A stretch of 64,000 bases of DNA. Origin: Candidatus Bipolaricaulota bacterium. Its GTDB lineage: Bacteria > Patescibacteriota > Patescibacteriia > UBA11705 > DATKZF01. The number at the start of each line of letters is the position of its first letter. Position 1 is the stretch's first letter. Below the pieces are notes generated by a model. It was not told where the DNA came from, searched no databases, and saw only the letters and a program-made list of their open reading frames with translations. The stretch covers positions 292,651 to 356,650 of the forward strand of contig DATKZF010000003.1 in assembly GCA_035528115.1 (NCBI GenBank). The letters are read 5' to 3'. Positions 10,980 through 57,184 of this stretch are shown here, piece by piece. Position numbers and translations under genes: made by a program.

Positions 10980-11098
<119 letters not shown>

Positions 11099-11160
11099 TA
11101 CCTCTTTAAAATTGTTGCTTTAAAATAAACTTTCTCATTTAAGTGGTTATGCATTTGACT

Positions 11161-14156
<2,996 letters not shown>

Positions 14157-14534
14157 GCATAACCACTAAAATGAGAAAATTTGTACTGTTATATTGATTC
14201 TCCATAGTATGTTGATATACTCGACGAATAAATTGAAAATTTATTTGTCATTTTTTAATTGTCAATGATCATGAGACAACTTAATCGGAAATAAAAAAGG
14301 CATTCGCAGCTCTGAAATCGTTATCTTGTTCGAGCAAACGACTACCTGTGGATAATTTAAATTGTCTGTGAAACATTATACATTAAATAAACGAACCATG
14401 TCAAGCAGCAAACCTTTTGCTTCAAAACATTGACATTTTCGCTAAATTACGGTATAATTATTCAGTTACAAGATTAAAGTTTCTAGTTGAAAGTATGGGG
14501 TGATTTTTAATCCTACTGAACTTTAATCTAACAA

Positions 14535-14620
14535 GCTGGGGTGGTGAAATTGGTATACACGCTTGCCTTAGGAGCAGGTGGGCATTGCCCGTGGAGGTTC
14601 GAGTCCTCTCCCCAGCACCA
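14535..14620 (+). tRNA. tRNA-Leu (TAG), class II
   Basis: Anticodon loop cttagga; long variable arm; CCA encoded. Confidence 0.85.
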
Positions 14621-14734
14621 TTCGACTCGGCTTTGCTGCGGCAAAGCCTCGCTCATGGTGTTCCACCACCTGCACAAGCGGGGCGAGGCGAATGCCCTGA
14701 GTGAGGAGCGGTAGTGACGAATCGAAGGGCATTC
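14621..14734 (+). repeat. Conserved tRNA 3'-trailer element (class 1)
   Basis: TTCGACTCG...CTCGCTCATGGTGTTCCACCACCTG...GAGGCGAATGCCCTGAG. Near-identical copies follow tRNA-Phe, tRNA-Gly(CCC) and tRNA-Ala. Confidence 0.7.
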
Positions 14735-15119
14735 TTAAAACCGGCATCTTGGCCGATTTTTTTATTTTTAAAAATTTTAATGAATTTTAAAAGCGGCCTG
14801 CGTTGCAGTCCGCTTGGTGGTTGACTTGAGAAGACGAGGTTCAGCTCACGAGGAAGCCCGAGGCAGAACCCCACTGCCGTCTGGCAAGCGCGCCCAGTAC
14901 GTCGTCTCCGACAACTTTCGTCGTCATGACAACTCTCCTTGCGCTCGCGCTGAAAAACCGGTCAGCGCTTCCGGCCCCGCCTCGACTTGAGAACAGGGAG
15001 ATTCGGAAAAAATTTGTCCGAATGTCTTTATTCTCAATTCAAGATAGTATGTTATACAACAACAGAAATGTCAATGATAAAATCTCTTATTATAACCGAA
15101 GTCAAAGGCATATTTTACA

Positions 15120-15148
15120 TTGACAGTACCTCCCTCATAAGTTAAAAT
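15120..15148 (+). promoter_or_regulatory. Sigma70-type promoter (TTGACA-17-TAAAAT) for the island-2 gene
   Basis: Exact -35 hexamer, 17-bp spacer, near-consensus -10, 33 bp upstream of the ATG. Confidence 0.6.
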
Positions 15149-15181
15149 TTATTCGAACTCAACACCCGGGAGGGCCACAAG

Positions 15182-15808
15182 ATGAGCGGGAACACAACGC
15201 CCGAAACTGGCGCGGATCAATCAACCCGCGATGAGGAGACGTGGCACAGCCGCGTCTTTCATCAGTGGGTCGGCCAGGCAAACGGCCGGCTGGTTGGATA
15301 TCCGGCCGCGTTCATCAGCGAAGTGATCGGAGACAATCCCTGTTTCTCAGATGCCGCGGCCACCGGATCAAGCGTGGCCAATGCCTGCATGGCCGCCATG
15401 TCAGTCGATTACTCGGACGAGCTCGGGCGCGGCGGAGCGCTCTGGCTGAGGCGACAGCCGGCAAGGATTTGGAAGCAGCTTCTAGGATTTTCAGAACATC
15501 ACCGCCAAGGAGTCGACGAAACATTCCTGGCCATGGTGATGTGGCTGTTTGACCCGGAAAGCGACCGAGCTCATGACAACGCCTTCGAATGGCTATGGGA
15601 TATACATCCTTACTTTTCCTGCGGTATGCACATGACCGGCAGACTCAGCTCCGACTTCGACAACCAGATTGAGGAGACAGCTCAATCCTGGCCGGCAGAT
15701 ACCAGGCGATGGACGCGCTGGGCGACCGAGAAATACCCGCTCGCGTTCCAAAATCTCGGAGGTTTTATCAAGCGCGGCGACTTAATAAGCGCGCCGATCC
15801 AAGAGTAG
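15182..15808 (+). CDS. Hypothetical protein (208 aa), GC-rich island 2
   Basis: RBS GGGAGGG 7 nt upstream; about 62% GC; no recognizable domain. Confidence 0.6.
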   Translation: MSGNTTPETGADQSTRDEETWHSRVFHQWVGQANGRLVGYPAAFISEVIGDNPCFSDAAATGSSVANACMAAMSVDYSDELGRGGALWLRRQPARIWKQLLGFSEHHRQGVDETFLAMVMWLFDPESDRAHDNAFEWLWDIHPYFSCGMHMTGRLSSDFDNQIEETAQSWPADTRRWTRWATEKYPLAFQNLGGFIKRGDLISAPIQE

Positions 15809-22067: not shown

Positions 22068-23735
22068 CTAGTAGTTGCAGAAGTACCCGCCGTCGACCGT
22101 GTCAAACACCGCGTTGATGTTGGGGTACGTGGGCAAAACACACATGACTGCGTGTTCCCCTGGCGAAACGCAAGTCATGAATGGGGTCATCCCGGAAACC
22201 TCGTCCGGAGTGCCCGGATCGATGTACGCCGTAGGCGGGGGAGCCGACGTATTGCTGGTGATGCTCACCCATACCTTACCGGTCAGCGTCTCGCTGATCG
22301 GATCGCTTGACTGGACGTCGAACAACAGCGCTTTGTAATCCACGCAACTCGAATAAAACTCAAACACGTGGATTCCTGGACCAATCGCGATCTGGCAGTT
22401 GCCCGGCAATGTGGAGTTGCAGACCACGGTTCCGTCCAACCGCAGGGTAGACGACGGCTGGGAGGTGATCGGTACGGTCAGGTCTTCTGTGGCCGCGGCG
22501 AACGTCACGTCGAACGTGTTGTTCGTCGCATCGATGAACTCATCGAGAACGACCGGGACGAATCCCCAACTGTTCACGATGACCTCATGCTGTCCTTCCG
22601 GCACCTCCATGGAACATGGCGTGCGGCAGACAGCCGGCTCGTTGTCGATTGACACGACCGCGTCCGTGGGGGTGCTCGTCACCGTCAGGAGAACGGGCAG
22701 CATGGCCTCGAGCATGGCGTCCACGACGTAGTCGTTGTCCAAAAATGACTCAACCGTCTCGTCGTAGTACCCGTCGAGATTGAACACGTACGTATGAGCG
22801 CACGCGGTCTGCTCAACGGCCAGGCATGGAGTCGCTTCGCAAACAACTTCGCCGCCTTCAGTGACGGTCGCGCCGATCGGCTCGGACGTGAAATCGCCAA
22901 CCACGGTCAGCGGCACGAGTGTCACGTTGAACGCGAAGCTCGTTTCCGAGACCATGATCAAGATATCCTCCGAGACGAAGCACCCGGTCAAGTCAATGAT
23001 GTGCACGGTGTGCTGCCCCTCGGTCAGAGAGATCTCTGCCGGCGTATAGTTCGTGACCGTGTCATCATCTACTCGGAAATAGACTCCGATCGGCTCGGAC
23101 GTGATAGTCACGACCACCACGATCGGCGCAATGTCCGGCTGAACATCGACAGGAACCACGTCCACGGCCATGTCAACCGGCACATCCGGCTGCACGTCAG
23201 CCGGCACGTCCTCGGCCACGTCGATTAGCACGTCCGGCTGCACGTCGACCGGCGCGTCCTCGATCACGTCGGGCGTCACCTCCGGCTGAACTTCGGCCAA
23301 CGCGTCCTCGATCAGATCGACCGGAACGTCCGGCTGAACATCGACCGGAACATCTTCCACCAACTCCGGCGGAACGTCCGGCTGAACTTCGACCGGAATG
23401 TCCTCGACCACCTCGAGCGGCACATCCTCCGCCACTTCTACCGGAATGTCCTCGACCAGCTCGGCCGGCACATCCCGCGCGACGTCGAGCGGATGGAGAT
23501 CTCGCATGGGCCTGCTGTCAGCCTCTGCGTCTTCTTCCATGTCCGGAACGGTGGCGTCCTCCTTGATGTCCGGCAAGCGCGGGATGTCGGTGATGACCTC
23601 GAGGAAGTCCCCTCCGAAATCATGAGCCATTGCATCTTCCGTTTCGACCAGGCTCGGGCCGACCGTGGCCTCACTACCGCAAGCGGCGAAGAAAAGGCCG
23701 ACAAAAACAAAAAGAACAAATTGTCTCGGACTCAT
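22068..23735 (-). CDS. Secreted acidic-repeat lipoprotein with about five PEGA-like domains, GC-rich island 3
   Basis: RBS AGGAGGA-7-ATG; signal peptide plus lipobox-like FAACGS; about 120 aa of (E/D)DVPV(D/E)VQPDVP tandem repeats; repeated ITSEP..G..V..DG...G.TP..EGQH blocks. About 62% GC. Confidence 0.7.
   Translation of the reverse strand: MSPRQFVLFVFVGLFFAACGSEATVGPSLVETEDAMAHDFGGDFLEVITDIPRLPDIKEDATVPDMEEDAEADSRPMRDLHPLDVARDVPAELVEDIPVEVAEDVPLEVVEDIPVEVQPDVPPELVEDVPVDVQPDVPVDLIEDALAEVQPEVTPDVIEDAPVDVQPDVLIDVAEDVPADVQPDVPVDMAVDVVPVDVQPDIAPIVVVVTITSEPIGVYFRVDDDTVTNYTPAEISLTEGQHTVHIIDLTGCFVSEDILIMVSETSFAFNVTLVPLTVVGDFTSEPIGATVTEGGEVVCEATPCLAVEQTACAHTYVFNLDGYYDETVESFLDNDYVVDAMLEAMLPVLLTVTSTPTDAVVSIDNEPAVCRTPCSMEVPEGQHEVIVNSWGFVPVVLDEFIDATNNTFDVTFAAATEDLTVPITSQPSSTLRLDGTVVCNSTLPGNCQIAIGPGIHVFEFYSSCVDYKALLFDVQSSDPISETLTGKVWVSITSNTSAPPPTAYIDPGTPDEVSGMTPFMTCVSPGEHAVMCVLPTYPNINAVFDTVDGGYFCNY
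23093..23480. repeat. Tandem ~24-bp coding repeats (acidic DVPVDVQP array)
   Basis: cgtccggctgaacttcgaccggaa-like units iterated about 15 times. Confidence 0.75.
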
Positions 23736-24053
23736 GCTGTCATCCTCCTGTTGTTGCGCATGATTGATATATCGATATGTCAAACTGCTGACTTATTATA
23801 CTAGAACAAAATCGTATTCTTGTCAATTCCCCAAATTATTTCAAAAGCTCTGCCATTTTACAATATGTATGACTGATTGGAAAGTAAAAGTATTACAAAA
23901 AAATGTCCCGATCAAGGACACTTTTTCTACCGATTCATGCCATTCTTCGCTTCGCGAAGAATGGGGGCACGGACCCACCTTCGTCAAGACTACGGCAAGC
24001 AGGCGGGATTTGCACCCATGCATAGCGGTTTTGTCCCGATAAATAAATAAATT

Positions 24054-25069: not shown

Positions 25070-25480
25070 ATGTTAAAAATTATCTTGTCGAGAATAGGAA
25101 AAAAACATCAACCCTTTTATCGCATAACGGTTCTTGAAAAGAGCAAAGATCCGTGGGGAAATTATCTGGAAAAATTGGGTCATTACAACCCGAGAACAAA
25201 AGAAATAAAGTTGAATGCGGAGAGAATCAAGCACTGGATCGCGAACGGAGCCCAACCTTCTGCCACGGTTCACAATTTGCTGGTGAAGAACGAAATCATT
25301 TCCGGAAAAAAGGTTTCCGTAACGACAATCAGCAAAAAGCGACAAGCAAAGATGGCCGCAAAAAAAGCTGAAAGCGCGGCCAAAGAAGAAGCTGCCAAAC
25401 CGGCCGCGGAAATAAAAGAAGAAGCTCCGGCCGTTGAAGATACTCCCAAGGCGGAACAGACTGAAACTGAAAAAAAATAA
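25070..25480 (+). CDS. rpsP: 30S ribosomal protein S16 with a K/A/E-rich tail
   Basis: MLKIILSRIGKKHQPFYRI S16 signature. Confidence 0.85.
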   Translation: MLKIILSRIGKKHQPFYRITVLEKSKDPWGNYLEKLGHYNPRTKEIKLNAERIKHWIANGAQPSATVHNLLVKNEIISGKKVSVTTISKKRQAKMAAKKAESAAKEEAAKPAAEIKEEAPAVEDTPKAEQTETEKK

Positions 25481-25493
25481 ATTTATCACAAAA

Positions 25494-25528
25494 AAATCGC
25501 CCCTCGACCTAAATCGGGGCGTTTTTTA
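25494..25528 (+). terminator. Intrinsic terminator after rpsP
   Basis: cgcccc...ggggcg followed by TTTTTT. Confidence 0.7.
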
Positions 25529-25530
25529 TC

Positions 25531-25559
25531 TTGACAGAAAACCTGTATTTTGCTATAAT
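25531..25559 (+). promoter_or_regulatory. Consensus sigma70 promoter TTGACA-17-TATAAT
   Basis: Perfect hexamers and spacer; about 100-nt structured leader before the KH gene. Confidence 0.65.
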
Positions 25560-25660: not shown

Positions 25661-25990
25661 ATGGCAGAAAAATTTGCTGACCAAGAGTTTGTTGAGTACC
25701 TTGTAAAGACGATCGTTTCTCATCCCGAAGATGTGCAAGTTGAACGAAAAGTTGATGAAATGGGAGTATTGCTTTCATTGACCATCAACGCGGAAGACAT
25801 GGGTTACGTCATCGGCAAACAAGGCAAAACAGCGAAGGCCATTAGAACTTTGCTGAAAATCGTCGGAGCGAAAAACAACGCTCGAGTCAACTTAAAAATC
25901 ATTGAACCGGAAGGCTCGACTCACGTTCGAAGACCGGAACCGGAAAGAGAAGAAGTTGACACCGACGTTGTTGATGATCTCAAGATCTAA
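25661..25990 (+). CDS. KH-domain RNA-binding protein (YlqC/UPF0109-like)
   Basis: GYVIGKQGKTAKAIRTL KH motif; conserved position after rpsP. Confidence 0.75.
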   Translation: MAEKFADQEFVEYLVKTIVSHPEDVQVERKVDEMGVLLSLTINAEDMGYVIGKQGKTAKAIRTLLKIVGAKNNARVNLKIIEPEGSTHVRRPEPEREEVDTDVVDDLKI

Positions 25991-26076
25991 ACAAATTTGT
26001 ATACTGCGAAAGCCACGGTAAAACGTGGCTTTTGTAATTTAAAAGGGCTACTGCTGTAAGTAGCCCGCGAGTAAGT

Positions 26077-26451
26077 TTACTCATTCAAAAAATCGTAAAA
26101 GAGCGAAGACGCATGGGAAATCAACCGCAGAATCTCCGTGAAATGCTTGCGCCTGAGTCTGGCGGACGCGCCCGCCACCATGCAATTTCTCCTCTTTAGA
26201 GCGGCCAGATCCGCCAAGGCGGCTCTCAAGGGCTCATTCTGCCTAATAATTTCTTTTATCAACATGTACACGGCGTCCGCGCCCGGGTAACGACGCAGGA
26301 AATTCTTCTTTCTTGTTCTGCGCGCCAGCTCGAGCGTTGCGCACAACTCAAAGACGCGATGCGCATCGCACATGCCACGGTTGTACAGCTGAAGGACGAA
26401 CAACTTCACCATCACCCTATTGAAAGTATCCAGCGTCGGTCGTCTGGTCAT
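26077..26451 (-). CDS. Hypothetical cytoplasmic protein (125 aa), GC-rich island 4
   Basis: Very strong RBS AGGAGGAGGAG immediately before ATG MTRRP; upstream promoter TTGACA-17-TATTTT. Confidence 0.5.
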   Translation of the reverse strand: MTRRPTLDTFNRVMVKLFVLQLYNRGMCDAHRVFELCATLELARRTRKKNFLRRYPGADAVYMLIKEIIRQNEPLRAALADLAALKRRNCMVAGASARLRRKHFTEILRLISHASSLFYDFLNE

Positions 26452-26579
26452 CTCCTCCTCCTTTAATAAATAAAAAATATCAATTCCGCGCCGCGCTGTC
26501 AAACGCGGCTTATTGGCTGATTGACAAAAAAGCGATTTTATGAGACGGTATACCAGGCCAAGCAACAAGGAGGATCGCC

Positions 26580-27353
26580 ATGAAACGGTCAATTTGTCTG
26601 GCTCTGTGTCTGTCTCTGTCGGTTTTGGCAAGCTGCGGAGCCAATGCTCCAAACACTTGCCCTGATCAAATCGTCTGGAACGTGCCGTATTCCTTGTGCG
26701 GCCAAAGCTGCGCCAAGTCCGAGACTGCGTGGGCAGGCGTCAACAAGAACATCTGCACAATGATGGAGGCAAGGATCTCACATGCCCCTGTCGTGAGCGG
26801 GCCATACCTGTTTCAGCTTTCGATGTCTTCGGCCTACGGAGCTTTGAGTCTTACTACCGCGCAAGAAGTCAGCGACTTGTTCCACATCTTCTACCCGCTG
26901 ACACAGCCGACGCACCAGCCGGGCGAGGTCGCGGGAGACTTGGTGTCAAACGAACAGCCATACCTCGTTCTGATTAACGGCGGCAACGTCAAAGAAATCA
27001 TTCAGTTGCGTGCGCTCGACGTTCCTTGGATGAACAAAGGCCGGGACTTTATTCCCACGGACAGGGACGCACTGCTTCTGGAAATCATGTCCAAAATGCA
27101 CGTCAACAATGACGGCGCATACACGTTGATACCTGTCAACATCAATTGTCCAATCTCGGAGTGCTATACCATCGATCTTGCTCCGGAGACCGTTGAAGGG
27201 TTTTTCCACATGGGTAAGACTCCTCGCAGAATATGGACTGTACAATATCAACAAAAGGAATTGACCGGCATCATCGAGATGGTCTTCCTCGATAACAACA
27301 GTTGCCGCAAACCTGAGACACCCGAGCCATTAGCCCCTGTCTTCGACCTCTGA
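26580..27353 (+). CDS. Lipoprotein (257 aa), GC-rich island 4
   Basis: RBS AAGGAGGA; signal peptide with lipobox LASCG; about 55% GC. Confidence 0.6.
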   Translation: MKRSICLALCLSLSVLASCGANAPNTCPDQIVWNVPYSLCGQSCAKSETAWAGVNKNICTMMEARISHAPVVSGPYLFQLSMSSAYGALSLTTAQEVSDLFHIFYPLTQPTHQPGEVAGDLVSNEQPYLVLINGGNVKEIIQLRALDVPWMNKGRDFIPTDRDALLLEIMSKMHVNNDGAYTLIPVNINCPISECYTIDLAPETVEGFFHMGKTPRRIWTVQYQQKELTGIIEMVFLDNNSCRKPETPEPLAPVFDL

Positions 27354-27418
27354 ACCTAGTCGCCATAGCCTCTAGGTTTTTTCAATTCATAATCCAGATG
27401 ATATAATGATTTCATAAT

Positions 27419-28090
27419 ATGAAATACGACATTTTAACTCTTTTCCCAGAAATCTTCGACTCTTATCTAAATGAGAGTATTTTGGGACGCGCTCAAAAAA
27501 ACAAGAAAATTCAAATCAAAATCCATGACATTAGAAAAAACGCGATTGATAAACACAACACCGCCGATGACAAGCCGTATGGCGGCGGACCGGGCATGGT
27601 CATGATGATCGAGCCGATTTACAAAACCTTAAAAAAAATCAGACGCAAAAAAAACTCCAAGGTTATCTTATTGTCCGCTCGCGGCAAAACATGGACTCAG
27701 CAAAGAGCGCAAAAATACAAAAAATTGGATCAGCTGATTTTAATCTGCGGACATTATGAAGGCGTGGACGAAAGAATCAAAAATTTCATTGATGAGGAAA
27801 TTTCCATCGGCGATTATGTTTTGACCGGGGGCGAGCTGGGCGCCATGGTTTTAGTTGATTCCATCTCAAGATTGATTCCCGGAGTACTGGGCAAAAAGGA
27901 ATCCTTGAAAGAAGAATCTCATTCCCAAAAAGGTTATTTGGAATATCCTCAATATACTCGGCCCGAAATATTTAAAGCTGGTGGCAAAAAATACGCGGTG
28001 CCGGAAATCTTACTCTCGGGCCACCATTTGAAAATAAACGAGTGGCGACAACGCCAATCAAAAAAGTTTGATTTTTTTAACAAGGTCTGA
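27419..28090 (+). CDS. trmD: tRNA (guanine37-N1)-methyltransferase
   Basis: PYGGGPGMVM and GDYVLTGGE SPOUT motifs. Confidence 0.9.
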   Translation: MKYDILTLFPEIFDSYLNESILGRAQKNKKIQIKIHDIRKNAIDKHNTADDKPYGGGPGMVMMIEPIYKTLKKIRRKKNSKVILLSARGKTWTQQRAQKYKKLDQLILICGHYEGVDERIKNFIDEEISIGDYVLTGGELGAMVLVDSISRLIPGVLGKKESLKEESHSQKGYLEYPQYTRPEIFKAGGKKYAVPEILLSGHHLKINEWRQRQSKKFDFFNKV

Positions 28091-28361: not shown

Positions 28362-28391
28362 GAGAAGGAAAAACCCTTCTCATTTTAATTT
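28362..28391. terminator. Bidirectional intrinsic terminator
   Basis: gagaagg-aaaaa-ccttctc followed by ATTTTAATTT. Confidence 0.55.
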
Positions 28392-29063
28392 CAAAAATAA
28401 GTACTTTAATAATTTGTCAATATTAGCGTCTCGATAAAGCTCAATAGAATTTTTATAAATTTTTTCATGTTCCGGATAAGGCTTTTGCTTTCCGATGTTA
28501 AACTTTTCTTTGCATTTACTGGAATTCATTATATGTATATTTATAATCTCAGAAACCGCCCATAATATATTCTCGTTCTTCTTGCCAGTAAACGCTGGGA
28601 ACCTTGCAAAAACATAATCATAAAAAATAAAATGAAGCATTTCATGAATAATTGTTTCAATTATACCGACCCTTTTATAATATGCCTGAAATATCTTATT
28701 CTTTATATCCCGTGGATTGCAATTCCAGATAGATAAATAGCACTTGTATACCCCCTTTGGGAAGGGGTGGCAATTAAAATACTCTTCGGCGAAACAAAAA
28801 AATTCATCACTTTTTCTATCCCACGCCTTCTCAGATGCAACTTTCGCTTTCAATATATCTTTTAAATGCGTTTTATAATATGAGGCCGTGTATGACTTTA
28901 GTACACATGGACTTATTCTTCCTTTCTTTTTCAATTCAGGATGCGAATTCAAAATACCTTTTTCAAAAAAAGAAAAACCTCCAAATTTAATTTTTCTAAA
29001 TTGGCAAGCTATTTTATAATCCAACTTTTCATCTAGACGAAACAGTAATTTAGGATGGTTCAT
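28380..29063 (-). CDS. HExxH-motif protein (putative metallopeptidase)
   Basis: IIHEMLHFIF motif. Confidence 0.5.
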   Translation of the reverse strand: MNHPKLLFRLDEKLDYKIACQFRKIKFGGFSFFEKGILNSHPELKKKGRISPCVLKSYTASYYKTHLKDILKAKVASEKAWDRKSDEFFCFAEEYFNCHPFPKGVYKCYLSIWNCNPRDIKNKIFQAYYKRVGIIETIIHEMLHFIFYDYVFARFPAFTGKKNENILWAVSEIINIHIMNSSKCKEKFNIGKQKPYPEHEKIYKNSIELYRDANIDKLLKYLFLKLK

Positions 29064-29106: not shown

Positions 29107-30495
29107 CTATCGCAAAGACTTGTAAAACGTCCAGATGAGGTATTCAAGCGTCCTTTTTGCATGGACGCAGAACACCTCATCAATATCATAGAGATTCCCA
29201 TGTTTGATTTCGGCATAATAAGGACAGCCTCCACCGCATATTGCCAACGCCGGACAAGAAAAGCAATGGGCTATATTCAACGGAGATCTTTGTCCCCAGT
29301 ATTTGAATTCCGCAGAACCTCGGAAATCGAAAGACTGCTCCTTCACGTCGGTAATGAAATATTTACCTGTTCCCAAAAACCCCGCACAAATACCTACGCT
29401 CCCTTTGGGAGATACCACAATCTGACTACCGCACCCAGCGCAATCATAGGGGTGGCAGTTCCCCATGACAAACGCATCGAACTTTCTACCCATTCTATCT
29501 TCATAAATTCCCCTGCGTTTCAAATGTTCAAATCCAGAAATCAAGGCCTTGGCAACCCTTTCGCCATAATCATCCGAGACTGCATATGGTGGTATTGGCC
29601 TAACAATATTGAAACCGACACTTTTGATTGCCGGCGTTTTATCTATCCATTCCAAAATTTGATCAAAGTCCCTCAGGCTTTCTTCACCCAAGGTACAGGA
29701 GATCCCGAACTCTGCGCCCACTTGATGCAGTAATTCCATCCCCGCAAAAATTGCCCTCACTGTTTTATGACTCTGACTGCGGTTAAGGTTCAATGCGGCC
29801 GGGCCGTCGATTGAAATAACCACAGTAACCCCATGCTCTTTCAAAAAAACGGCTATCTCCCTGGTCAACAAGGTACCATTTGTAATAATCGAAATGTCGG
29901 TCTTTTTAGGCAGTTGTGACCTCTCCACAAAGGAAAGAATTGACAGAATGGCCCTTTTCAGACCTCGCTCATTAATCAAAGGTTCCCCGCCATAAAGAAT
30001 CACCTAGCATTCAGAATGACTGGCCAATGTCACCTGGCGGGCGAAAAATTGAATCGCCGCATCCACGGTCGACTCAGACATCAAAGCAGGACGGTATGTG
30101 GACGGAAAACTATTTCGGACAAAACAATACCTGCATGATAGATTGCATTTATCAGTCAGCAACAAGTACATTACAGAGACGCCCCATATCATCTGCTTTG
30201 AACGAAAAGACTCCAGTTCTGCTTGACTGTCATGCGTATCCAAGACAATGAACTTCTTCGACAGAAGAAGCTCGAACATTTTTTCCGAATCATCCTGTCC
30301 CATTCTCAAATGGTCAACAAATTCTTCCCTTATAAACAAAGTGCCGGTCAACCATTGAATGAATGGCTCGTTGCTCATGGGAAAAAAGATTGGGCTAATT
30401 CCCAAAGAATGATAGAGACAAAGGGCCTCATCTCCCTTATAAAAGTGCGTGAACGGAGATATTCTATACTTGTTTTCAAGGTTCAATCCTGGCAT
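29107..30495 (-). pseudogene. Radical SAM / SPASM-domain enzyme interrupted by a single in-frame TAG (at 30004..30006)
   Basis: The N-part carries CNLSCRYC (CxxxCxxC). The C-part begins VILYGGEPL and ends with the Cys-rich SPASM motif CAGCGS...CFSCPALAICGGGCP. Both parts share one frame, separated only by TAG. RBS AAAGGAGA before MPGLNL. Confidence 0.6.
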
Positions 30496-30615
30496 TTCCG
30501 TCTCCTTTCGTTGTTTAGGCTTTGCCACTCGCATTTTAGAATATTATTTGAAAATATTCAAAAATCCCGTAAAAACTACCCACAATTAATCCACCTTTTG
30601 GAACCAAAAAAAGAT

Positions 30616-30644: not shown

Positions 30645-30744
30645 CTTTACCACATTGATCTTTACAATAGAAAATTGATAGAAAGAAGTCCATTGTTTAC
30701 TTTTTTTCAGAGTTTTGACCAACTCTTTTCAAAATGGTCAAATT

Positions 30745-32231
<1,487 letters not shown>

Positions 32232-32378
32232 TGGAGATATCGAATAAGTGACCTTGACATTGCTTATTCAAATTCGGTCGAGATTCCGATTTATCGGAGT
32301 CAGGACTTCCTTTCTATCAATTTTCTGTTGTAAATAAAAAAAGCGGCCTGATTGGCTGTTTTTTTATTCAATAAAACA

Positions 32379-32407
32379 TTGACTATTTCATACATTTTTG
32401 ATATAGT
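32379..32407 (+). promoter_or_regulatory. Promoter TTGACT-17-TATAGT for the tRNA cluster
   Basis: Follows a weak hairpin plus T-run after the 16S. Confidence 0.45.
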
Positions 32408-32464
32408 TTCTATTGAAGTTTTTGTAATAATCCGATAGAATAAAGCCATAGTCGGTTCCCTTTA

Positions 32465-32541
<77 letters not shown>

Positions 32542-32631
32542 GCCTTCGCTAAAGCTTCGGCTGGCAGGCCAACTTTTAGAAATCGGTCCGATTCATCGGG
32601 ACTCCAAAATTTTTCACTTTTAACTTTTTAC

Positions 32632-32708
32632 GGGCGTGTAGCTCAGTTGGTTAGAGCGCAGCACTGATAATGCTGAGGTCATAGGTTCGATTCCTATCAC
32701 GCCCACCA
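32632..32708 (+). tRNA. tRNA-Ile (GAT)
   Basis: Anticodon loop ctgataa. Confidence 0.85.
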
Positions 32709-32774
32709 GCCTTCGCTAAAGCTTCGGCTGGCAGGCCATAAGATGCTTGCCCGACAAAGCCTTGGCGAAGTCGG

Positions 32775-32849
32775 GCCAGGTTAGCTCAGTGGTAGAGCGA
32801 AGGACTGAAAATCCTTGCGTCCCCAGTTCAATTCTGGGACCTGGCACCA
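32775..32849 (+). tRNA. tRNA-Phe (GAA)
   Basis: Anticodon loop ctgaaaa. Confidence 0.85.
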
Positions 32850-32960
32850 TTCGACTCGCCCTCGGTGCCACTCGGGCTCGCTCATGGTGTGCCACCACCT
32901 GAATGTACGAAGTGAGGCGAGTGCCCTGAGTTTATGGAAGGGTTTTTTTATTTTTGTTTG
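32850..32960 (+). repeat. tRNA 3'-trailer element (class 1) copy
   Basis: TTCGACTCG...CTCGCTCATGGTGTGCCACCACCTG...GAGGCGAGTGCCCTGAG followed by a terminator-like hairpin and T-run. Confidence 0.7.
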
Positions 32961-33025
32961 TTATTTGATATTTGTTGTTTGGAATTTGTTTAGGATTTAG
33001 TGTTTAGAATTTATAATTTAATCCA

Positions 33026-33102
33026 CGGGGTGTGGCGCAGTTGGCTAGCGCGCTTGCTTTGGGAGCATGAGGCCGTGGGTTCGAGTCCCACCACCCCGAC
33101 CA
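33026..33102 (+). tRNA. tRNA-Pro (TGG)
   Basis: Anticodon loop tttggga with one mismatch in the anticodon stem; acceptor CGGGGTG. Confidence 0.75.
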
Positions 33103-33162
33103 GCCTTCGCTCCTCCTCGCTCCGCTCGTCGGGGCTTCGGCTGGCGGGCCAGCCAAAAAAAT

Positions 33163-33420
33163 ATGCAAAACCATTTAAAATATTTTGTTTATATAGCACA
33201 AAGTTTAATTAAAGATGATGAATTTTATAAGGGATATTCAGTTGATATTGACGAAAGATTGATTAAGCATAATTTAGGATTATCCAAGCATACTGCAAAA
33301 TATAAACCATGGAAAATTATATTTTATTGCGCTCTTAGCAATAGAGAAAAAGCTATCGCTTTTGAGAAATATCTTAAATCCGGATCAGGAAGGGCTTTTG
33401 CCAAAAAAAGATTCATATAA
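33163..33420 (+). CDS. GIY-YIG nuclease superfamily protein (UPF0213/YhbQ-like, 85 aa)
   Basis: YFVYIAQSL...GYSVDIDERL...KYL.SGSG pattern. Confidence 0.6.
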   Translation: MQNHLKYFVYIAQSLIKDDEFYKGYSVDIDERLIKHNLGLSKHTAKYKPWKIIFYCALSNREKAIAFEKYLKSGSGRAFAKKRFI

Positions 33421-33561
33421 TTTAAATCGCTTGGCGGGTTTACCCCGCTAAAATTTCAACATGCCTACGAGATGGCGGGCCTGCTCCTCGAGTCTGAGCG
33501 ACGAGATCGTCAGACCTCGGAGTCGAAGACCCGCCGAAGCTCGAACATAGTGAGAGCGCAG

Positions 33562-33636
33562 GCGGGTATAGTATAATGGCTATTATGTCAGCCTTCCAAG
33601 CTGAATATACGGGTTCGATTCCCGTTACCCGCTCCA
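33562..33636 (+). tRNA. tRNA-Gly (TCC)
   Basis: Anticodon loop cttccaa. A partial 3' duplicate lies at 33750..33772. Confidence 0.85.
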
Positions 33637-33645
33637 ATAAAAAAA

Positions 33646-33682
33646 TCCCAACGATGTGTTGGAGTTTTTTTATTTAGGAATC
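33646..33682 (+). terminator. Intrinsic terminator
   Basis: tccaac-gatgt-gttgga followed by GTTTTTTTATTT. Confidence 0.65.
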
Positions 33683-33826
33683 GAACCCATACCAAGAGCA
33701 AAACAGATTCCCGCTGCCCTGAGCGAGAGAGGCTTTACCGAACGAGTCGAAGGGTTACCCGCTCCAATAAAAGAACTTCAACATTGCGTTGAAGCTTTTT
33801 TATATCAGTAAAATAATCTCAAAAAT

Positions 33827-34591
33827 TTACGCCACCTCAAAAAACAATCTTAACAGCAACATAAAGCCCAAACCCAGCAAAAAGAAAATAAACGCGAGAA
33901 TCGATTTGCTAAGCTTCAGCTCGCGATTGAGCTCGGGAATCAAATCCGAGGCCGCAATATAGATAAATCCGCCGGCGGTAATGGCCAAAAGCAGCGGCGT
34001 AACGCCCTCAATATGTCTGGCCAAAATCAAACCGATCACAGCGCCAACAACCGCGATAAGCGCGGACATAAAATTGTAAAACAAGGCTCTTGCTTTAGTA
34101 AAACCGCCATAAATTAAAACTCCGAAGTCACTGATCTCCTGCGGAATTTCATGAGTAATAACCGCCAATGTTGTCACCAACCCCAGATGAAAATCAGCCG
34201 CGAAAGAAGCGGCAATCACCAAGCCGTCGATAAAATTATGAAAACCATCGCCGATCAAATTCATATAAGATAACGCTTTTCGATGTCTTTTCTCATCGCA
34301 CTCGCCTTTGCATTTATGATTGTGGTGCCAGTGAAAAACCCTTTCGATGATAAAAAACAACGTGAATCCCGACAAGATGAAAAAGGTTATGGAGATCGCC
34401 GGTTTTTCCGCCAGCGCCTCGGGGATCAGATGAAGCAAAGCCCCGCCCAAAAGCGATCCGGCGGAAAACCCCACCAAAAGCAATAAAATTTTCTCAAGCA
34501 ATTTATCTTTTAACAGCAATGCCAAGATGCCCGCGAACGATAAAAGGCTGACCAAAAAAGTTGCTCCGATTGTCCAAAGAATGATTTGCAT
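33827..34591 (-). CDS. zupT: ZIP-family zinc transporter
   Basis: Multi-TM; HNFIDGLVIA and HEIPQEISDF motifs. Confidence 0.8.
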   Translation of the reverse strand: MQIILWTIGATFLVSLLSFAGILALLLKDKLLEKILLLLVGFSAGSLLGGALLHLIPEALAEKPAISITFFILSGFTLFFIIERVFHWHHNHKCKGECDEKRHRKALSYMNLIGDGFHNFIDGLVIAASFAADFHLGLVTTLAVITHEIPQEISDFGVLIYGGFTKARALFYNFMSALIAVVGAVIGLILARHIEGVTPLLLAITAGGFIYIAASDLIPELNRELKLSKSILAFIFFLLGLGFMLLLRLFFEVA

Positions 34592-34678
34592 ATGCTCTCA
34601 GCATAGCAAAATATCAAGGCGCAATCAAGCGCTCAACGCTTGTTTTAAGCCTCAGGAATTGCTAAAATAATAATGCTC

Positions 34679-34753
34679 GCGGGCGTCGTATAGTGGTTAT
34701 TACATCGGCTTCCCAAGCCGAGAACGGCGGTTCGATTCCGCTCGCCCGCTCCA
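34679..34753 (+). tRNA. tRNA-Gly (CCC)
   Basis: Anticodon loop ttcccaa. Confidence 0.85.
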
Positions 34754-34862: not shown

Positions 34863-36386
34863 ATGAGCGAAAAAATAAAAAATCTAATTTTAAAAAACAA
34901 AGCGTTAATTTGTCTTTTTTTAATTTACGCGATTTCCACGATATTCTTCGCTTCCCATTACCTGGCCAATTGGGACGCCGGGCAATTCGCTTTGGGAACG
35001 CAAAACTTCAATCTCGAAAATCATCAGCCTCATCCGCCCGGCTATTTTTTATTTATTTTTTGCGCCAAGGGTCTTAATTATTTCATTTCAAATATCAATG
35101 CTTGCTTTTTGGTCATCAATTTTCTGGCCGGATTTTTCGCCTTGATTTTCCTTCATAAATTGACACTGGAAATTTCCAAAAATGAAAAAACATCTTTTAT
35201 AATCGCTCTGCTTTTTATTTTCAATCCTGTTTTCTGGTACTATCGCGATATTGCCAATACCTACGTCTTTGAATCATTGGCCATATTATCGACGGCTTTT
35301 TTCGCTTATGAGTCGATTGTCGGAGAAAAAAACAGATTTGCTTTGTCCGTTGGCATTATTGCCATTTTAATGGGCTTTCGGCCGTCGATTATTTTGGCAG
35401 CCGCGCCCATACTTTTTATCCACTGGATTTTCAGCAAAGATAAAATCAAGAATATTTTTTTGGGCGCGGCTGCCTTTCTAATCATTTTTTCCGCCTGGTT
35501 TATTCCTTTCGCGAAAACAGTCGGTTGGCACAATCTGTCCGCTTTAATCAAAGGACAACTTACGTCAGCTCATGAATCATTTTCTCAAAAATCGCAACTG
35601 ATGTTTTTAATTAAAAGTTTAATTTTTTCCGTGAGCGCTTCTCTTTTAGTCGCGTTCTTTTTCATCAAGAAAAATTTGAATTTCCTCAAAGAAAAAAAAC
35701 TTTTTTATTTTCTGATTTCGCCCGCTTTTTTAATCTTTTTTTACGCGCTCGTTCATTTCGGCGAGGTCGGCTATCTTCTCGGCATAATTTCACTTTTTTC
35801 TTTGTTGATCATCTACCCCGTATCCAAGCTCCTAAACAAATCATGGGGTCTGATTTTATTGATCGCCGTTTTAATCGGACAAATTTGCTGTTTTATTTAC
35901 CCGCAAAAATATTTTCAAAATGAAAAAATCGAAAAAATAAATTATGTCTCGATTCGCGCTCGTGACACTCTTTTGAACAATTATATTTCTTTCATCAAAA
36001 CGCTTGATCCCAAAGAATCCTTGATCCTGATTTTGCGCGGGCAATATTTCAACGCGGAAAATAAAGTCGATAAATACGAAAACGAGGACATTCGAGCTCT
36101 CGGCTATTATCTGCCCGAATACAAGCTTTACGACTTTTCCGGCGTGACGAGCGAATATTCGATTTTGGAAAATTTTGACACTGCCAAATATTTCAGCAAT
36201 GACATTGAAATAAACTCAGGAATTAAAAACTTTTATGTTCTCGCAAATTACGTCAATCCGATCGACTACACGGATGAATTCACGTTATCAGAGCAAAACA
36301 TGCCTGATTCGGCTCTGAATTATTACTTGGGAAACATTGAAAACATTGATGAATTTGAATTTAAGGGATTCTTTTTTACAAAATAA
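34863..36386 (+). CDS. Polytopic membrane protein, GT-C-fold glycosyltransferase-like (PMT/ArnT-like)
   Basis: At least 12 predicted TM helices; family commonly expanded in CPR genomes. Confidence 0.5.
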   Translation: MSEKIKNLILKNKALICLFLIYAISTIFFASHYLANWDAGQFALGTQNFNLENHQPHPPGYFLFIFCAKGLNYFISNINACFLVINFLAGFFALIFLHKLTLEISKNEKTSFIIALLFIFNPVFWYYRDIANTYVFESLAILSTAFFAYESIVGEKNRFALSVGIIAILMGFRPSIILAAAPILFIHWIFSKDKIKNIFLGAAAFLIIFSAWFIPFAKTVGWHNLSALIKGQLTSAHESFSQKSQLMFLIKSLIFSVSASLLVAFFFIKKNLNFLKEKKLFYFLISPAFLIFFYALVHFGEVGYLLGIISLFSLLIIYPVSKLLNKSWGLILLIAVLIGQICCFIYPQKYFQNEKIEKINYVSIRARDTLLNNYISFIKTLDPKESLILILRGQYFNAENKVDKYENEDIRALGYYLPEYKLYDFSGVTSEYSILENFDTAKYFSNDIEINSGIKNFYVLANYVNPIDYTDEFTLSEQNMPDSALNYYLGNIENIDEFEFKGFFFTK

Positions 36387-36457
36387 TATTAAACCCGAAA
36401 AACAGCCGTCAAAAGCGGCTTTTTTGTTTAATTTAAGACAAATTTTAACAGAAAACC

Positions 36458-36486
36458 TTTACAAAATATTAGAATTGTGATATAAT
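36458..36486 (+). promoter_or_regulatory. Promoter TTTACA-17-TATAAT for the island-5 gene
   Basis: Follows the terminator of the preceding gene. Confidence 0.6.
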
Positions 36487-36542
36487 TTTTTGATTGTCCG
36501 AAAAGACTATCAATCGCAACACTGCAACCCTGGAGGAGATCG

Positions 36543-37259
36543 ATGGGAATAAAACGCTTTGTGGCGACGAGTGAGCTCCCTGAGCTCGCGCTCGGGGGAT
36601 GCGGACTCGTGCTCAAGGATCCCGAAGAACTGCCGGCAGAACTCGAGCCGGCCTTGACCTCGACCAAGTTCCTCGGGGTCAACGCCTATAGTAATGGCTC
36701 CCGCCTGCCCTGTCGGTTCCTCAAAGTCGTCAACGAAGGAGCCGGGGACTCCTTCTGGTACAAACTGCCGCAGGGGCTCGAGGAAAACTTCGACTCGTTC
36801 GAGGTCTCCTTGCGCGTGTCCTGCGCGGAGGAGGACCCGGACACCGGCGCCGGGGTTGAGATCCTGTTCGGCAGAGAAAGCGAGAGTCAGTGCTTTCTCT
36901 TCATGAACACCAGGGACCGCTCGTCGTTCCTGCGGTTCGGCAAGCTCCGCATCGCGCGGGGCGTCGAGTTTCCGACACTGTTCATTCGGTGCCGGCGACT
37001 CGTCGGCGGCCAGGTCGTCTTCAAGTACTTCGCGCTCAACGCCGAAGTGAAAGAAGCGGCCGGCCGGCTCGTCGTCTCGTTCGAGCCGATCAGCCTGGCC
37101 GAACTGCCCGAGTCGCTCCGGACCAAGACGTTCTGGACGCCGCGGCCCGAGCACCTCGAGCGCATGCGCGAGGACCTGGCTCTGCGCGAGGAGCAGAGCG
37201 AGTGCTTCCTGCTGCCGCACAAAGTGCGCGTGCAGCTCGTTCACACCCCGGCCGAGTAG
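36543..37259 (+). CDS. Hypothetical protein (238 aa), GC-rich island 5
   Basis: RBS GGAGGAG; about 63% GC; no recognizable domain. Confidence 0.6.
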   Translation: MGIKRFVATSELPELALGGCGLVLKDPEELPAELEPALTSTKFLGVNAYSNGSRLPCRFLKVVNEGAGDSFWYKLPQGLEENFDSFEVSLRVSCAEEDPDTGAGVEILFGRESESQCFLFMNTRDRSSFLRFGKLRIARGVEFPTLFIRCRRLVGGQVVFKYFALNAEVKEAAGRLVVSFEPISLAELPESLRTKTFWTPRPEHLERMREDLALREEQSECFLLPHKVRVQLVHTPAE

Positions 37260-37274
37260 AGGCAGAGGATTCTT

Positions 37275-37316
37275 GGCGGCGGAAAGATCGAGATCTTTCC
37301 GCCGCCTTTTGATTTT
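37275..37316 (+). terminator. Intrinsic terminator of the island-5 gene
   Basis: ggcggcggaaagatcgagatctttccgccgcc followed by TTTTGATTTT. Confidence 0.75.
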
Positions 37317-55155: not shown

Positions 55156-55572
55156 TTAAGCTCCCAAAGTCACATTGACCAATTCACCGACCACATAACT
55201 GGAAATGGCATAAGCCAACAAAACGATGACCAAGCCGATGATGCCGTTGATGATCCAGTCTTTGGCTTTTTTAACCTTTTCATCGGCTCCGCCGGCGGTC
55301 ATGTACAAAAAGCCTCCGTACAAGATGACCACGAGCAAAATAATGCCCATGAAAGTCAAAACGATTCTGATGATGTCGCCGATCACTACCGGCAAAGATC
55401 TTGACTCCGCTCCGAACTGATCGCCCGTCGTTCCCAATGTCCCGATAATGTCAGGCGTGCCCGCGGCGCCGGTGCTGTCGGCTAAAACCACTGCCGGCGT
55501 AACCAGCAACGCGATGGTTGCGAGCGCCAGTAAAGCCGGGACGAATTTTTTCAATGAAATTTTCGTACGCAT
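55156..55572 (-). CDS. VirB2/TrbC-like pilin-family protein (paralog 1)
   Basis: Signal peptide; two hydrophobic helices separated by the YMTAGG loop; KVKKAKDWIINGIIGL. Confidence 0.6.
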   Translation of the reverse strand: MRTKISLKKFVPALLALATIALLVTPAVVLADSTGAAGTPDIIGTLGTTGDQFGAESRSLPVVIGDIIRIVLTFMGIILLVVILYGGFLYMTAGGADEKVKKAKDWIINGIIGLVIVLLAYAISSYVVGELVNVTLGA

Positions 55573-55610
55573 AAATTTTTTAATTTATTGATATTTAAGT
55601 TAATTTTATT

Positions 55611-56000: not shown

Positions 56001-56005
56001 ATTTA

Positions 56006-56374: not shown

Positions 56375-56379
56375 ATCGG

Positions 56380-56600: not shown

Positions 56601-56675
56601 GCCATCTACAAAGATAAATGACTGAACCAAGAAGGGCAGAGTTTCCCAGCTGGGACGCAAACCCTGCCTCCTCTT

Positions 56676-57056: not shown

Positions 57057-57084
57057 ATTTTTTATTACAAGATTACGAAATTTG

Positions 57085-57152: not shown

Positions 57153-57184
57153 TAAATTTATTCGACCTTTTATTAATTGTTAAA

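Follow-up and report, generated by a model that had tools for sequence, protein, structure and literature searches.

The trmD operon of E. coli and the Firmicutes carries its genes in the order rpsP-[ylqC/khpA]-rimM-trmD-rplS. In streamlined genomes such as those of SAR11 and Prochlorococcus, flexible islets or hypervariable regions, including 'replacement/additive' flexible islands, lie between core genes. The locus described here, in a 64,000-nucleotide stretch of DNA (the window), was compared with both. According to gene layout and Pfam, rpsP (ribosomal protein S16; 25070-25480, plus strand; PF00886 Ribosomal_S16, E = 4.7e-21), a KH gene of the khpA type (25661-25990, plus strand; PF13083, E = 2.6e-23) and trmD (27419-28090, plus strand; PF01746, E = 3.5e-55) keep their order and shared orientation. 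rpsP, which has no upstream Shine-Dalgarno site, is the upstream anchor, and khpA and trmD are the left and right anchors of a slot in which they stand 1428 bp apart. The slot holds a segment of 1.35 kb with 52% GC (about 26045-27396) that carries two divergent genes separated by 128 bp: ORF-A on the minus strand (26077-26451, 124 aa plus stop codon) and ORF-B on the plus strand (26580-27353, 257 aa). The GC-rich divergent pair between the KH gene and trmD described in the initial annotation is borne out by layout and composition, and the 125-aa protein listed there corresponds to ORF-A, its 124 codons counted with the stop codon. The segment is probably a lineage-specific two-gene accessory module in a flexible khpA-trmD slot. 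On this reading the event is ordinary accessory-gene turnover, and no operon is broken.

The reality of the segment was examined at the level of assembly and coding capacity. A 438-kb contig from ENA (100% identity to the window over 12.8 kb) and an 11.6-kb Logan contig (100% identity over 10.2 kb) span both junctions; since these independent assemblies are base-for-base identical across them, the segment is not an assembly artefact. Both ORFs look coding. Compared with 1000 dinucleotide shuffles, the ORF-B open stretch has 269 codons against a shuffle mean of 135 (P = 0.004), and that of ORF-A has 220 codons against a mean of 106 (P < 0.001). For ORF-A, the comparison was made with the second-longest ORF of each shuffle, which was shorter in 1000 out of 1000. 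The codon-position pattern GC3 > GC1 > GC2 is present in both genes. Spurious ORFs in non-coding GC-rich DNA, or a chimeric assembly, would fit the lack of ORF-B homologs and the low-confidence AF2 models, but this explanation is extremely unlikely given the identical assemblies, the ORF lengths beyond those of the shuffles, the coding-like codon-position GC, the correctly placed Shine-Dalgarno sites, signal peptide with lipobox and terminators, and the absence of any Rfam match in the segment at the gathering threshold or at E ≤ 1.

Predicted transcription signals separate the housekeeping genes. A terminator-like hairpin follows rpsP (about 25498-25527, plus strand; -13.8 kcal/mol, z = -4.0), and a promoter-like site, TTGACA-17-TATAAT with TG (25531-25559, plus strand), reaches a perfect 12/12 in the scan upstream of the KH gene. 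The predicted intrinsic terminator of khpA (26005-26044, plus strand), with an A-tract, a 13-bp stem and a T-tract (-21.1 kcal/mol, z = -5.1), forms the native left edge of the slot. This A-tract/hairpin/T-tract arrangement recurs in more than 25 relatives, where the stem sequences differ with compensatory changes. The native right edge is the trmD extended -10 element GATGATATAAT (27397-27407, plus strand; promoter scan), located 11 nt before the ATG, and the trmD mRNA is predicted to be near-leaderless and without a Shine-Dalgarno site. ATG[AC]TATAAT stands directly after the khpA terminator in the empty-site relatives L174, L167, L163 and L175, and is also found upstream of trmD in L164, L169 and L173; an extended -10 (TGnTATAAT) just upstream of trmD is present in at least eight lineages. 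By prediction only, rpsP, khpA and trmD are separate transcription units with their own hairpin terminators. Since predicted terminators lie between the three genes and trmD has its own -10, the insertion falls between transcription units, not inside one. Insertion into a conserved operon, as first proposed, is thus contradicted by the predicted terminators that separate the genes in this clade and by khpA and trmD promoter elements that recur in relatives.

The segment brings its own signals. The ORF-A terminator hairpin (26045-26066, minus strand; -13.8 kcal/mol, z = -3.4; also matched in the terminator scan) occupies the first bases of the insert, with UUUUAAAUU / TTTTAAATT downstream of it on the minus strand, and the ORF-B terminator hairpin with T6 (U6) lies at the right insert end (27352-27385, plus strand; -12.1 kcal/mol, z = -4.7). 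The folding z-scores support the statement that the pair is flanked by terminators, with strong hairpins on both sides. As for the claim that each gene has its own promoter, a promoter-like site was found for ORF-A (26502-26474, minus strand; TTGACA at 26502-26497, 17 nt, TATTTT at 26479-26474, with TG; 10/12 in the scan), but nothing upstream of ORF-B passed the scan, the best candidate by eye being TTGGCT-17-TTTTAT with 8/12. A GCCGCG/CGCGGC inverted repeat (26490-26509, minus strand; within the promoter-like region 26474-26509) covers the -35 of ORF-A, forms a hairpin in the fold and is a possible operator. Shine-Dalgarno sites were read from the sequence for both genes: AGGAGGAGGAG (26452-26462, minus strand), which abuts the ATG of ORF-A, and AAGGAGGA (26567-26574, plus strand), 5 nt upstream of the ATG of ORF-B.

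The host genome belongs to the Patescibacteria/CPR. Its NCBI label, 'Bipolaricaulota', conflicts with the Patescibacteria affinities found. An HMM search detected no rimM in the 64-kb window or in any Patescibacteria locus examined, and the gene is missing between khpA and trmD in every relative examined. rimM has been reported to be nearly absent in CPR (PMC12641178, PMC6744442). Its absence from the locus, pointed out in the initial annotation, holds, but the connection with the insertion does not, as rimM is absent across the clade. We infer that the absence is unrelated to the insertion and reflects an older, phylum-level loss.

The slot was compared in 26 related lineages in which rpsP, khpA and trmD are all present. 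The median length of their khpA-trmD spacers is 98 bp, most relatives having 60-170 bp, and the pair is absent from the relatives; synteny thus supports the segment as an insertion relative to these lineages. Closer relatives (TrmD 80-86% identical; KH protein 84-88% in close relatives; 16S 90.5-93.6% where the 16S is on the contig, 93.6% being the nearest relative compared) have either spacers of 71-255 bp without a called ORF or different occupants, and none of their slots carries ORF-B. ORF-free slots are those of L174 (71 bp), L167/L168 (142 bp), L176 (177 bp) and L163/L166 (255 bp). L164/L165 have two ORFs, L169 has one, and the more distant L091 has a HAD hydrolase gene; L173 likely holds another occupant, the fifth after those of the window, L164, L169 and L091. 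The 128-aa ORF of L164 and the 113-aa ORF of L169 show no relationship to one another or to either ORF-A or ORF-B. The 255-bp spacer of L163 was considered as a decayed copy of the window cassette and rejected, with no similarity by blastn and tblastx. Neighbouring slots are variable too, namely polA-PEGA, trmD-16S and rpsP-KH (869 bp in L096). The khpA-trmD slot thus shows conserved flanks and differing content at one site among relatives, as a flexible intergenic islet does.

ORF-A encodes a protein predicted to be soluble, all-alpha and basic (pI 10.7), without a transmembrane segment, and modelled by single-sequence AF2 as six helices with a pLDDT of 56. A word-index protein search returned only the protein itself. 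One candidate relative was found through synteny, a 115-aa protein in the L164 slot (P0123, an unannotated singleton cluster; L164:5125-5472, minus strand), with a Smith-Waterman z of 11.6 and reciprocal phmmer E-values of 3.4e-4 and 2.4e-3. The best non-self E-values of the other slot ORFs in the same database, taken as a control, were 0.39-2.2. The similarity is low (28% identity overall, 36% over 53 residues, compared with 83-85% for the flanking proteins) and is missed by composition-adjusted BLASTP. The two proteins are close in length and have the core FLxx[YF]PxxDAxYxLI...ALxDxxAL in common, and the L164 gene occupies the same slot and strand as ORF-A, adjoins the khpA terminator and resembles ORF-A in its promoter, Shine-Dalgarno and terminator layout. 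In contrast, the L164 protein is acidic, so charge is not conserved; its gene is AT-rich with a host-like composition (GC3 0.20, against 0.68 in the GC-rich ORF-A); and its partner is an unrelated co-directional gene, while that of ORF-A is a divergent lipoprotein gene. This weak but significant similarity points to remote homology, and by these alignments ORF-A belongs to a fast-evolving family of small proteins that is also represented in the L164 slot. A 191-aa form of ORF-A starting at TTG was rejected because it overlaps the start of ORF-B and bypasses the Shine-Dalgarno site and ATG, and because the L164 homolog, at its N-terminus, matches the shorter 124-aa form.

The same relationship bears on a history without transfer, in which ORF-A, and perhaps ORF-B, would have been in the slot since the ancestor of the family, with loss in several lineages and very rapid divergence in place. 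Their GC would then be a local enrichment like that of the PEGA genes, arising for example by biased gene conversion at recombining variable loci. The homolog in L164, with its shared position, orientation and signal layout, speaks for this history, and so do the PEGA genes, whose GC is 10-15 points above that of their own genomes in the window, L163 and L164. We regard it nevertheless as rather unlikely. ORF-B has no counterpart anywhere searched, in L164 the partner is an unrelated gene in the opposite orientation, and ORF-A is far less similar to its L164 counterpart than the flanking proteins are to theirs (28% against 83-85%). Moreover, the minimal or ORF-free slots of four close lineages (L174, L167/L168, L176 and L163/L166) would need several independent clean deletions.

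ORF-B agrees with its earlier description as a 257-aa lipoprotein, by prediction. In its N-terminus, an MKR n-region and a hydrophobic core precede the lipobox L-A-S-C (residues 16-19, regex match); residues 1-18 form the predicted signal peptide and Cys19 the predicted lipidation site, and no second hydrophobic segment was found in the protein. The mature part has 239 aa, is acidic (pI 4.9) and contains 8 Cys. The single-sequence AF2 model, with a pLDDT of 33, is uninformative. Only self matches were obtained for ORF-B in a search of 5.8e9 clusters and in an exhaustive phmmer search against 1.84e9 representatives, and a local sensitive phmmer search found no relative in any of the fetched loci; the two large searches, over billions of sequences, thus detected no relative. 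PDB sequence searches with ORF-A, ORF-B and an ORF-A/L164 profile gave only matches with E > 0.3, and Foldseek against the PDB with the weak AF2 models gave nothing with E < 2.

The initial annotation took the pair to be foreign. GC is 50-56% over 26000-27350 and about 40% in the flanks. When the insert (51.7%) is set against the non-rRNA part of the window (44.5%), z is 1.4 and 20 out of 278 same-size windows are equally high. At third codon positions, ORF-A (GC3 0.68) and ORF-B (GC3 0.64) both exceed every one of the 36 reference genes, whose GC3 averages 0.498 with an sd of 0.065. The atypical composition is therefore moderate, with a z of 1.4 for GC by window and of 2.2-2.8 for GC3 by gene. 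In addition, 27 of the 31 genes inspected are missing a canonical Shine-Dalgarno core at normal spacing, while the sites of ORF-A and ORF-B are strong. However, the PEGA surface-protein genes, located at the same position in the close relatives L163/L166 and L164/L165, are likewise GC-enriched with strong Shine-Dalgarno sites. Since these variable genes of the family show both features, high GC and Shine-Dalgarno sites are no proof of foreign origin, and the GC of the segment could have arisen in situ, without transfer.

Signs of mobility were sought on several levels. The segment contains only the two ORFs, neither with a match in Pfam, PHROGs, NCBIfam or PADLOC, and hence no integrase, transposase or recombinase, and no integrase was seen within 22-32 kb. 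A repeat search over 25900-27500 revealed no target-site duplication, boundary direct repeats or terminal inverted repeats, and there is no adjacent tRNA. Plasmids, phages (at the DNA level) and viral contigs (protein and profile scans) gave no match, and no donor was found. A toxin-antitoxin or defence system gave no PADLOC or Pfam match either, and the genes are divergent, 128 bp apart, and not co-directional.

Taken together, these results make it unlikely that a foreign pair was recently transferred by a mobile element from an unrelated, GC-richer, Shine-Dalgarno-using donor, splitting an rpsP-KH-(rimM)-trmD operon. Such a transfer would account for the composition (a GC of 52% where the flanks have about 40%, and a GC3 above that of every reference gene), for strong Shine-Dalgarno sites in both ORFs where 27 of 31 genes have no canonical core, for an ORF-B without homologs anywhere searched, and for the absence of the pair from all relatives. 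It is opposed by the lack of an integrase or transposase, target-site duplication, terminal repeat or adjacent tRNA, by the absence of phage, plasmid or viral-contig matches, by an ORF-A homolog in the equivalent slot of a sister lineage, and by the PEGA genes, present at the same position in close relatives, which likewise combine Shine-Dalgarno sites with GC enrichment. Furthermore, there was no operon to split, and the loss of rimM is phylum-wide. What stands of the foreign-pair claim is the atypical composition and the absence from relatives; the case for foreign origin itself is weakened by the L164 homolog and the PEGA genes.

The number of different occupants raises a further reading, that the point where the khpA terminator meets the trmD promoter serves specifically for the capture of small, self-contained cassettes, each equipped with a promoter, a Shine-Dalgarno site and a terminator, by site-specific or hairpin-targeted recombination. 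At least four different occupants (window, L164, L169 and L091), with L173 as a likely fifth, share an insertion point a few base pairs wide; the cassette ORFs of the window, L164 and L169 have strong Shine-Dalgarno sites and their own terminators; and the L164 terminator hairpin AAACGCTCAACGAG[CT]GTTTTTT is present in two copies, one behind each cassette ORF. Yet the insertions have no junction motif in common, no attC-like repeat or recombinase was seen, other spacers are sometimes occupied (rpsP-KH with 869 bp in L096; trmD-16S varies), and selection alone would limit tolerated insertions to the few bases between terminator and -10, so that a dedicated site is very unlikely. There is a similarly slim chance that the gap between the khpA T-tract and the trmD -10 acts in this Patescibacteria family as a specific landing pad that repeatedly captures self-contained mini-cassettes of promoter, strong Shine-Dalgarno site, ORF and terminator, independently of a recombinase or through hairpin targeting, with ORF-A-like genes as recurrent occupants and ORF-B as a recent acquisition, a surface factor that interacts with the host.

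In the preferred explanation, a lineage-specific accessory module in a flexible slot, the module would have the T-tract of the khpA terminator on its left and the extended -10 promoter of trmD on its right. It brings terminators of its own that face outwards, so that the native elements at its edges, the terminator of khpA and the promoter of trmD, are intact. With each housekeeping gene predicted to form a separate transcription unit, the insertion would be neutral for trmD. Probably the slot either gained the GC-rich version anew or exchanged earlier content for it, by recombining with a donor of higher GC that may have been another Patescibacterium; delivery by a classical mobile element is less likely. 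ORF-A would be a small helical protein of the cytoplasm, from a fast-evolving family that dwells in the slot, and transcribed from its own promoter; the palindrome that covers the -35 of this promoter suggests that ORF-A regulates itself or that the divergent gene is controlled there. From its sequence features, ORF-B would be exported by Sec, lipidated at Cys19 by Lgt/LspA and then exposed on the outer side of the membrane, as an acidic surface protein rich in disulfides. The protein may be a further member of the rapidly changing surface repertoire of the clade, perhaps involved in contact with a host or partner.

The direct value of the locus is modest. It documents, at base-pair resolution, the addition of accessory genes to an ultra-small CPR genome with essential genes left undisturbed, the predicted point of entry lying behind an intrinsic terminator and ahead of a near-leaderless promoter. 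That the only relative of ORF-A was found via synteny suggests that some CPR 'ORFans' are very fast-evolving genes at a conserved position. The variable genes of this family with strong Shine-Dalgarno sites and higher GC, set against the inspected core genes without such sites, are a small lead on two regimes of translation initiation in one genome.

In comparison with known systems, the window shares rpsP, a KhpA-type KH gene and trmD, in order on one strand, with the trmD operon of E. coli and the Firmicutes. It differs in having no rimM, no rplS immediately downstream of trmD, a predicted terminator and promoter for each gene, and a 1.35-kb two-gene module between khpA and trmD. Of the features of an integrative mobile element or genomic island, atypical composition and absence from relatives were found, and an integrase and repeats were not. 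Integron gene cassettes are likewise small, single-gene-sized units that gather at one site, but no attC or IntI integrase was seen here, the two terminal hairpins of the slot are unrelated to each other, and the slot cassettes carry their own promoters and terminators in mixed orientation. ORF-B has the charged n-region, hydrophobic h-region and lipobox of bacterial lipoproteins (SPase II substrates) and matches [LVI][ASTVI][GAS]C, while its predicted mature domain resembles none of the known lipoprotein families. The islets of SAR11 and Prochlorococcus have in common with the slot conserved flanks, variable content that is enriched in surface or unknown proteins, no mobility genes and atypical composition. 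With respect to them, the slot module is far smaller, with one or two genes, and the comparison made here is across genera (16S 90-94%) and not strains, while its edges, a terminator on one side and a -10 element on the other, are placed with base-pair precision.

In the window, rpsP (25070-25480, plus strand) and a KhpA-type KH gene, khpA (25661-25990, plus), are followed by two divergent genes, ORF-A (26077-26451, minus, 124 aa) and ORF-B (26580-27353, plus, 257 aa), and then by trmD (27419-28090, plus). GC content, about 44.5% in the window outside the rRNA genes, rises from about 40% to 50-56% over 26000-27350 and drops again at trmD. Folding revealed three strong hairpins around the pair: the khpA terminator (26005-26036, plus, -21.1 kcal/mol, z = -5.1), the ORF-A terminator (26045-26066, minus, -13.8 kcal/mol) and the ORF-B terminator (27352-27379, plus, -12.1 kcal/mol, then U6). 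The GC-rich, terminator-flanked divergent pair reported between the KH gene and trmD in the initial annotation was thus recovered at the same coordinates, with ORF-B of the size given there and ORF-A one residue shorter than the 125 aa proposed. Shine-Dalgarno sites precede both ORF-A (AGGAGGAGGAG) and ORF-B (AAGGAGGA). A promoter of its own had been assigned to each gene; the promoter scan gave a promoter-like match for ORF-A only, and nothing above threshold upstream of ORF-B. A palindrome at 26490-26509 covers the -35 of ORF-A and suggests a regulatory role for its product.

A chimeric assembly was rejected, since two assemblies, one from ENA (438-kb contig) and one from Logan (11.6 kb), match the window at 100% identity over both junctions; ORF-B is present on eight contigs of the collection searched. 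A non-coding segment was also rejected. The open stretches, 269 and 220 codons long, exceed the averages from 1000 dinucleotide shuffles (135 and 106; P = 0.004 and <0.001), GC3 > GC1 > GC2 in both ORFs, ORF-B carries a lipoprotein signal, and Rfam gave zero matches within the segment.

Among 26 related lineages with all three genes, the median spacer is 134 bp for rpsP-khpA and 98 bp for khpA-trmD. The latter has a stereotyped content of A-tract, hairpin and T-tract, the hairpin stems varying by lineage with compensating changes (GACCAC, GCCAG, GTCCC, ACGCC and others). Many lineages then have an extended -10, ATG[AC]TATAAT, directly after the T-tract, 10-20 nt 5' of the trmD ATG. Both native elements are kept in the window, the khpA hairpin and GATGATATAAT at 27397-27407, with 1.35 kb in between. 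Since this -10 is just 11 nt from the ATG, the trmD mRNA would be near-leaderless.

The slot between T-tract and -10 was compared in closer relatives, found by a search of a large protein collection (TrmD 80-86% identical). The khpA-trmD spacer is empty in L174 (71 bp) and L167/L168 (142 bp) and holds no ORF in L176 (177 bp) and L163/L166 (255 bp). One minus-strand ORF of 104-113 aa with an HxxxCxxC motif (805-1146) is found in L169 (590 bp), and two minus-strand ORFs of 115 and 128 aa in L164/L165 (975 bp); the L173 contig is truncated, with a cassette-type junction, and in the more distant L091 a HAD hydrolase gene occupies the slot. The L169 motif is reminiscent of zf-HC2 anti-sigma factors, with no Pfam match above threshold for the protein. 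The L164 ORFs are mutually unrelated and both end in a near-identical hairpin, AAACGCTCAACGAG[CT]GTTTTTT (5086-5112 and 5540-5566), with no other copy in any fetched locus. Since slot contents vary while terminator and -10 are conserved, the segment occupies a flexible slot lying between what are predicted to be separate transcription units, and no operon is interrupted; what had been described as an insertion into the rpsP-KH-trmD operon is one relative to relatives only. The insertion point is identical in the window and L164, between T-tract and -10. That this junction is a dedicated cassette-capture site is a weak reading, as no motif at the boundaries is common to the insertions, and spacers elsewhere have occupants now and then.

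The source MAG is labeled 'Candidatus Bipolaricaulota bacterium' at NCBI, which looks wrong. Close TrmD relatives with a consistent name are all Patescibacteria, Parcubacteria or Paceibacterota, the closest such KH relatives are Patescibacteria (CPR) MAGs, and the best 16S match (93.6% identical) is L163, a 'Patescibacteria group' MAG; the window belongs to a 763-kb contig. An HMM built from 22 RimM sequences in fetched loci (L111 and others) recovered 30 RimM ORFs at E < 1e-3. Among loci near the window lineage, only the distant L111 yielded one, with no match in the window or any other Patescibacteria locus fetched. Two papers describe rimM as nearly absent in CPR (PMC12641178, PMC6744442). 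The gene is indeed missing between khpA and trmD, as first noted, but this is a phylum-level trait unrelated to the insertion.

ORF-A is predicted to be soluble, with a pI of 10.7, and its AF2 model, of low confidence (pLDDT 56), has six helices. Against the 115-aa slot ORF of L164 it gave a Smith-Waterman score of 71 vs 25 ± 4 for shuffled sequences (z = 11.6), aligning over residues 40-92 (about 36% identity), where the common core is FLxx[YF]PxxDAxYxLI...ALxDxxAL. The two are reciprocal best non-self phmmer matches (E = 3.4e-4 and 2.4e-3; local database of 16,232 ORFs), where control slot ORFs reached only E = 0.39-2.2. Composition-adjusted BLASTP did not detect this similarity, and the word-index search was blind to it because no 5-residue word is common to both. 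The L164 copy has the same slot position and orientation, and a host-like GC3 of 0.20 vs 0.16-0.30 in neighbouring genes. Judged by these alignments, ORF-A is not a true orphan, having a putative homolog in the L164 slot, and appears as a member of a fast-evolving family living there. The lipoprotein call for ORF-B was supported by an MKR n-region, a hydrophobic core and a lipobox LASC with Cys19; there is no second hydrophobic segment, and the mature protein is acidic with 8 Cys. No relative was found in a word-indexed search of 5.8e9 clusters or by exhaustive phmmer on 1.84e9 representatives. ORF-B is predicted to be a new, secreted, Cys-rich lipoprotein, and its features would be consistent with surface display.

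The pair had been called foreign, and several findings favor this. The GC3 values of ORF-A (0.68) and ORF-B (0.64) lie above those of every one of 36 reference genes (mean 0.498, sd 0.065); the segment is in the top 4-7% of same-size windows for GC, tetranucleotide and dinucleotide deviation; and ORF-B lacks a relative in the collections searched. In addition, among 31 genes inspected, a convincing Shine-Dalgarno site at normal spacing was present only in ORF-A, ORF-B and a GC-rich Csx3-domain gene. Against it, gene calls, tRNA and repeat searches revealed no integrase, target-site duplication, terminal repeat or adjacent tRNA at the segment, searches of phage, plasmid and viral-contig collections were negative for the pair, and the ORF-A homolog in L164 is host-like in composition.

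Similar signals also occur in the PEGA-domain genes, variable surface-protein genes of the host family. One lies between polA and a 185-aa gene in the window (22068-23783, minus), as in L163/L166 (L163 2327-3304) and L164/L165 (L164 722-2386). They are 10-15 GC points higher than their own genomes (L163, 59% vs ~44% for the locus; L164, 48% vs ~39%) and have Shine-Dalgarno sites, that of the window gene being a strong AGGAGG 5' of an internal ATG at 23735. Strong Shine-Dalgarno sites are likewise present in the slot ORFs of L164 and L169, which are AT-rich. Therefore, high GC and Shine-Dalgarno sites mark a variable-gene class in the host family, and are not necessarily signs of import. Core genes (rpsP, khpA, trmD, polA and others) lack Shine-Dalgarno sites and variable or ORFan genes have canonical GGAGG, which suggests two translation-initiation regimes within one genome. 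Slots near khpA-trmD are variable as well. The polA-proximal PEGA genes are hypervariable, with little or no mutual similarity: that of the window has no match in L163 and is about 30% identical to that of L164. In its protein, a lipobox-like FAAC occurs along with acidic DVPVDVQPDV repeats.

The Csx3-domain gene (782-1963, plus) fuses an AAA-like N-terminus to Cas_csx3 (PF09620, E = 1.7e-19); it is compositionally the most deviant in the window (65% GC, GC3 0.89, z = 6), with a strong Shine-Dalgarno, GGAGGGAG. Two other GC-rich patches lie within 36000-37300 and 14400-15800. The first reaches 63% GC at 36510-37244, its longest ORF having an unusual GC1 of 0.82, and the second 58% at 15182-15808; their ORFs are without Pfam match. 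The gap between trmD and 16S varies too, from 172 bp in L167 through about 0.7-0.8 kb in L163 and L164 to 2.65 kb in the window, where it is filled by an AT-rich 227-aa ORF (28380-29063) and a radical SAM gene (29107-30534, minus). The latter is two abutting same-frame ORFs split by one in-frame TAG (30004-30006, GAA TGC TAG GTG), which may reflect a pseudogene, a sequencing error or recoding. Among the rRNA genes, 23S-5S (10985-14164, minus) is unlinked to 16S (30744-32229, plus), lying 16.6 kb upstream on the opposite strand; a tRNA run (Val, Ile, Phe, Pro, Gly, Gly) follows 16S in place of 23S (30744-34753). Within a cluster of small secreted proteins (55156-57973, minus), two members have T4SS pilin domains (PF18895, E = 5e-11 and 2e-10).

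The best account would be an accessory pair located in a permissive slot, with ORF-A as the slot-resident family member and ORF-B as a new lipoprotein. Recombination with a GC-richer donor, possibly a related Patescibacterium, most likely brought in the GC-rich version, as a gain or as a replacement; divergence of the pair in place is possible. The event would be tolerated because terminators at the ends of the module face outward and trmD retains its own near-leaderless promoter. Tested for membership among integrative elements, integron cassettes and toxin-antitoxin or defence systems, the segment failed each time. Of the two nearest known systems, the canonical trmD operon shares gene order with the window, but not rimM or, by prediction, co-transcription; the other is the flexible islets of streamlined genomes.
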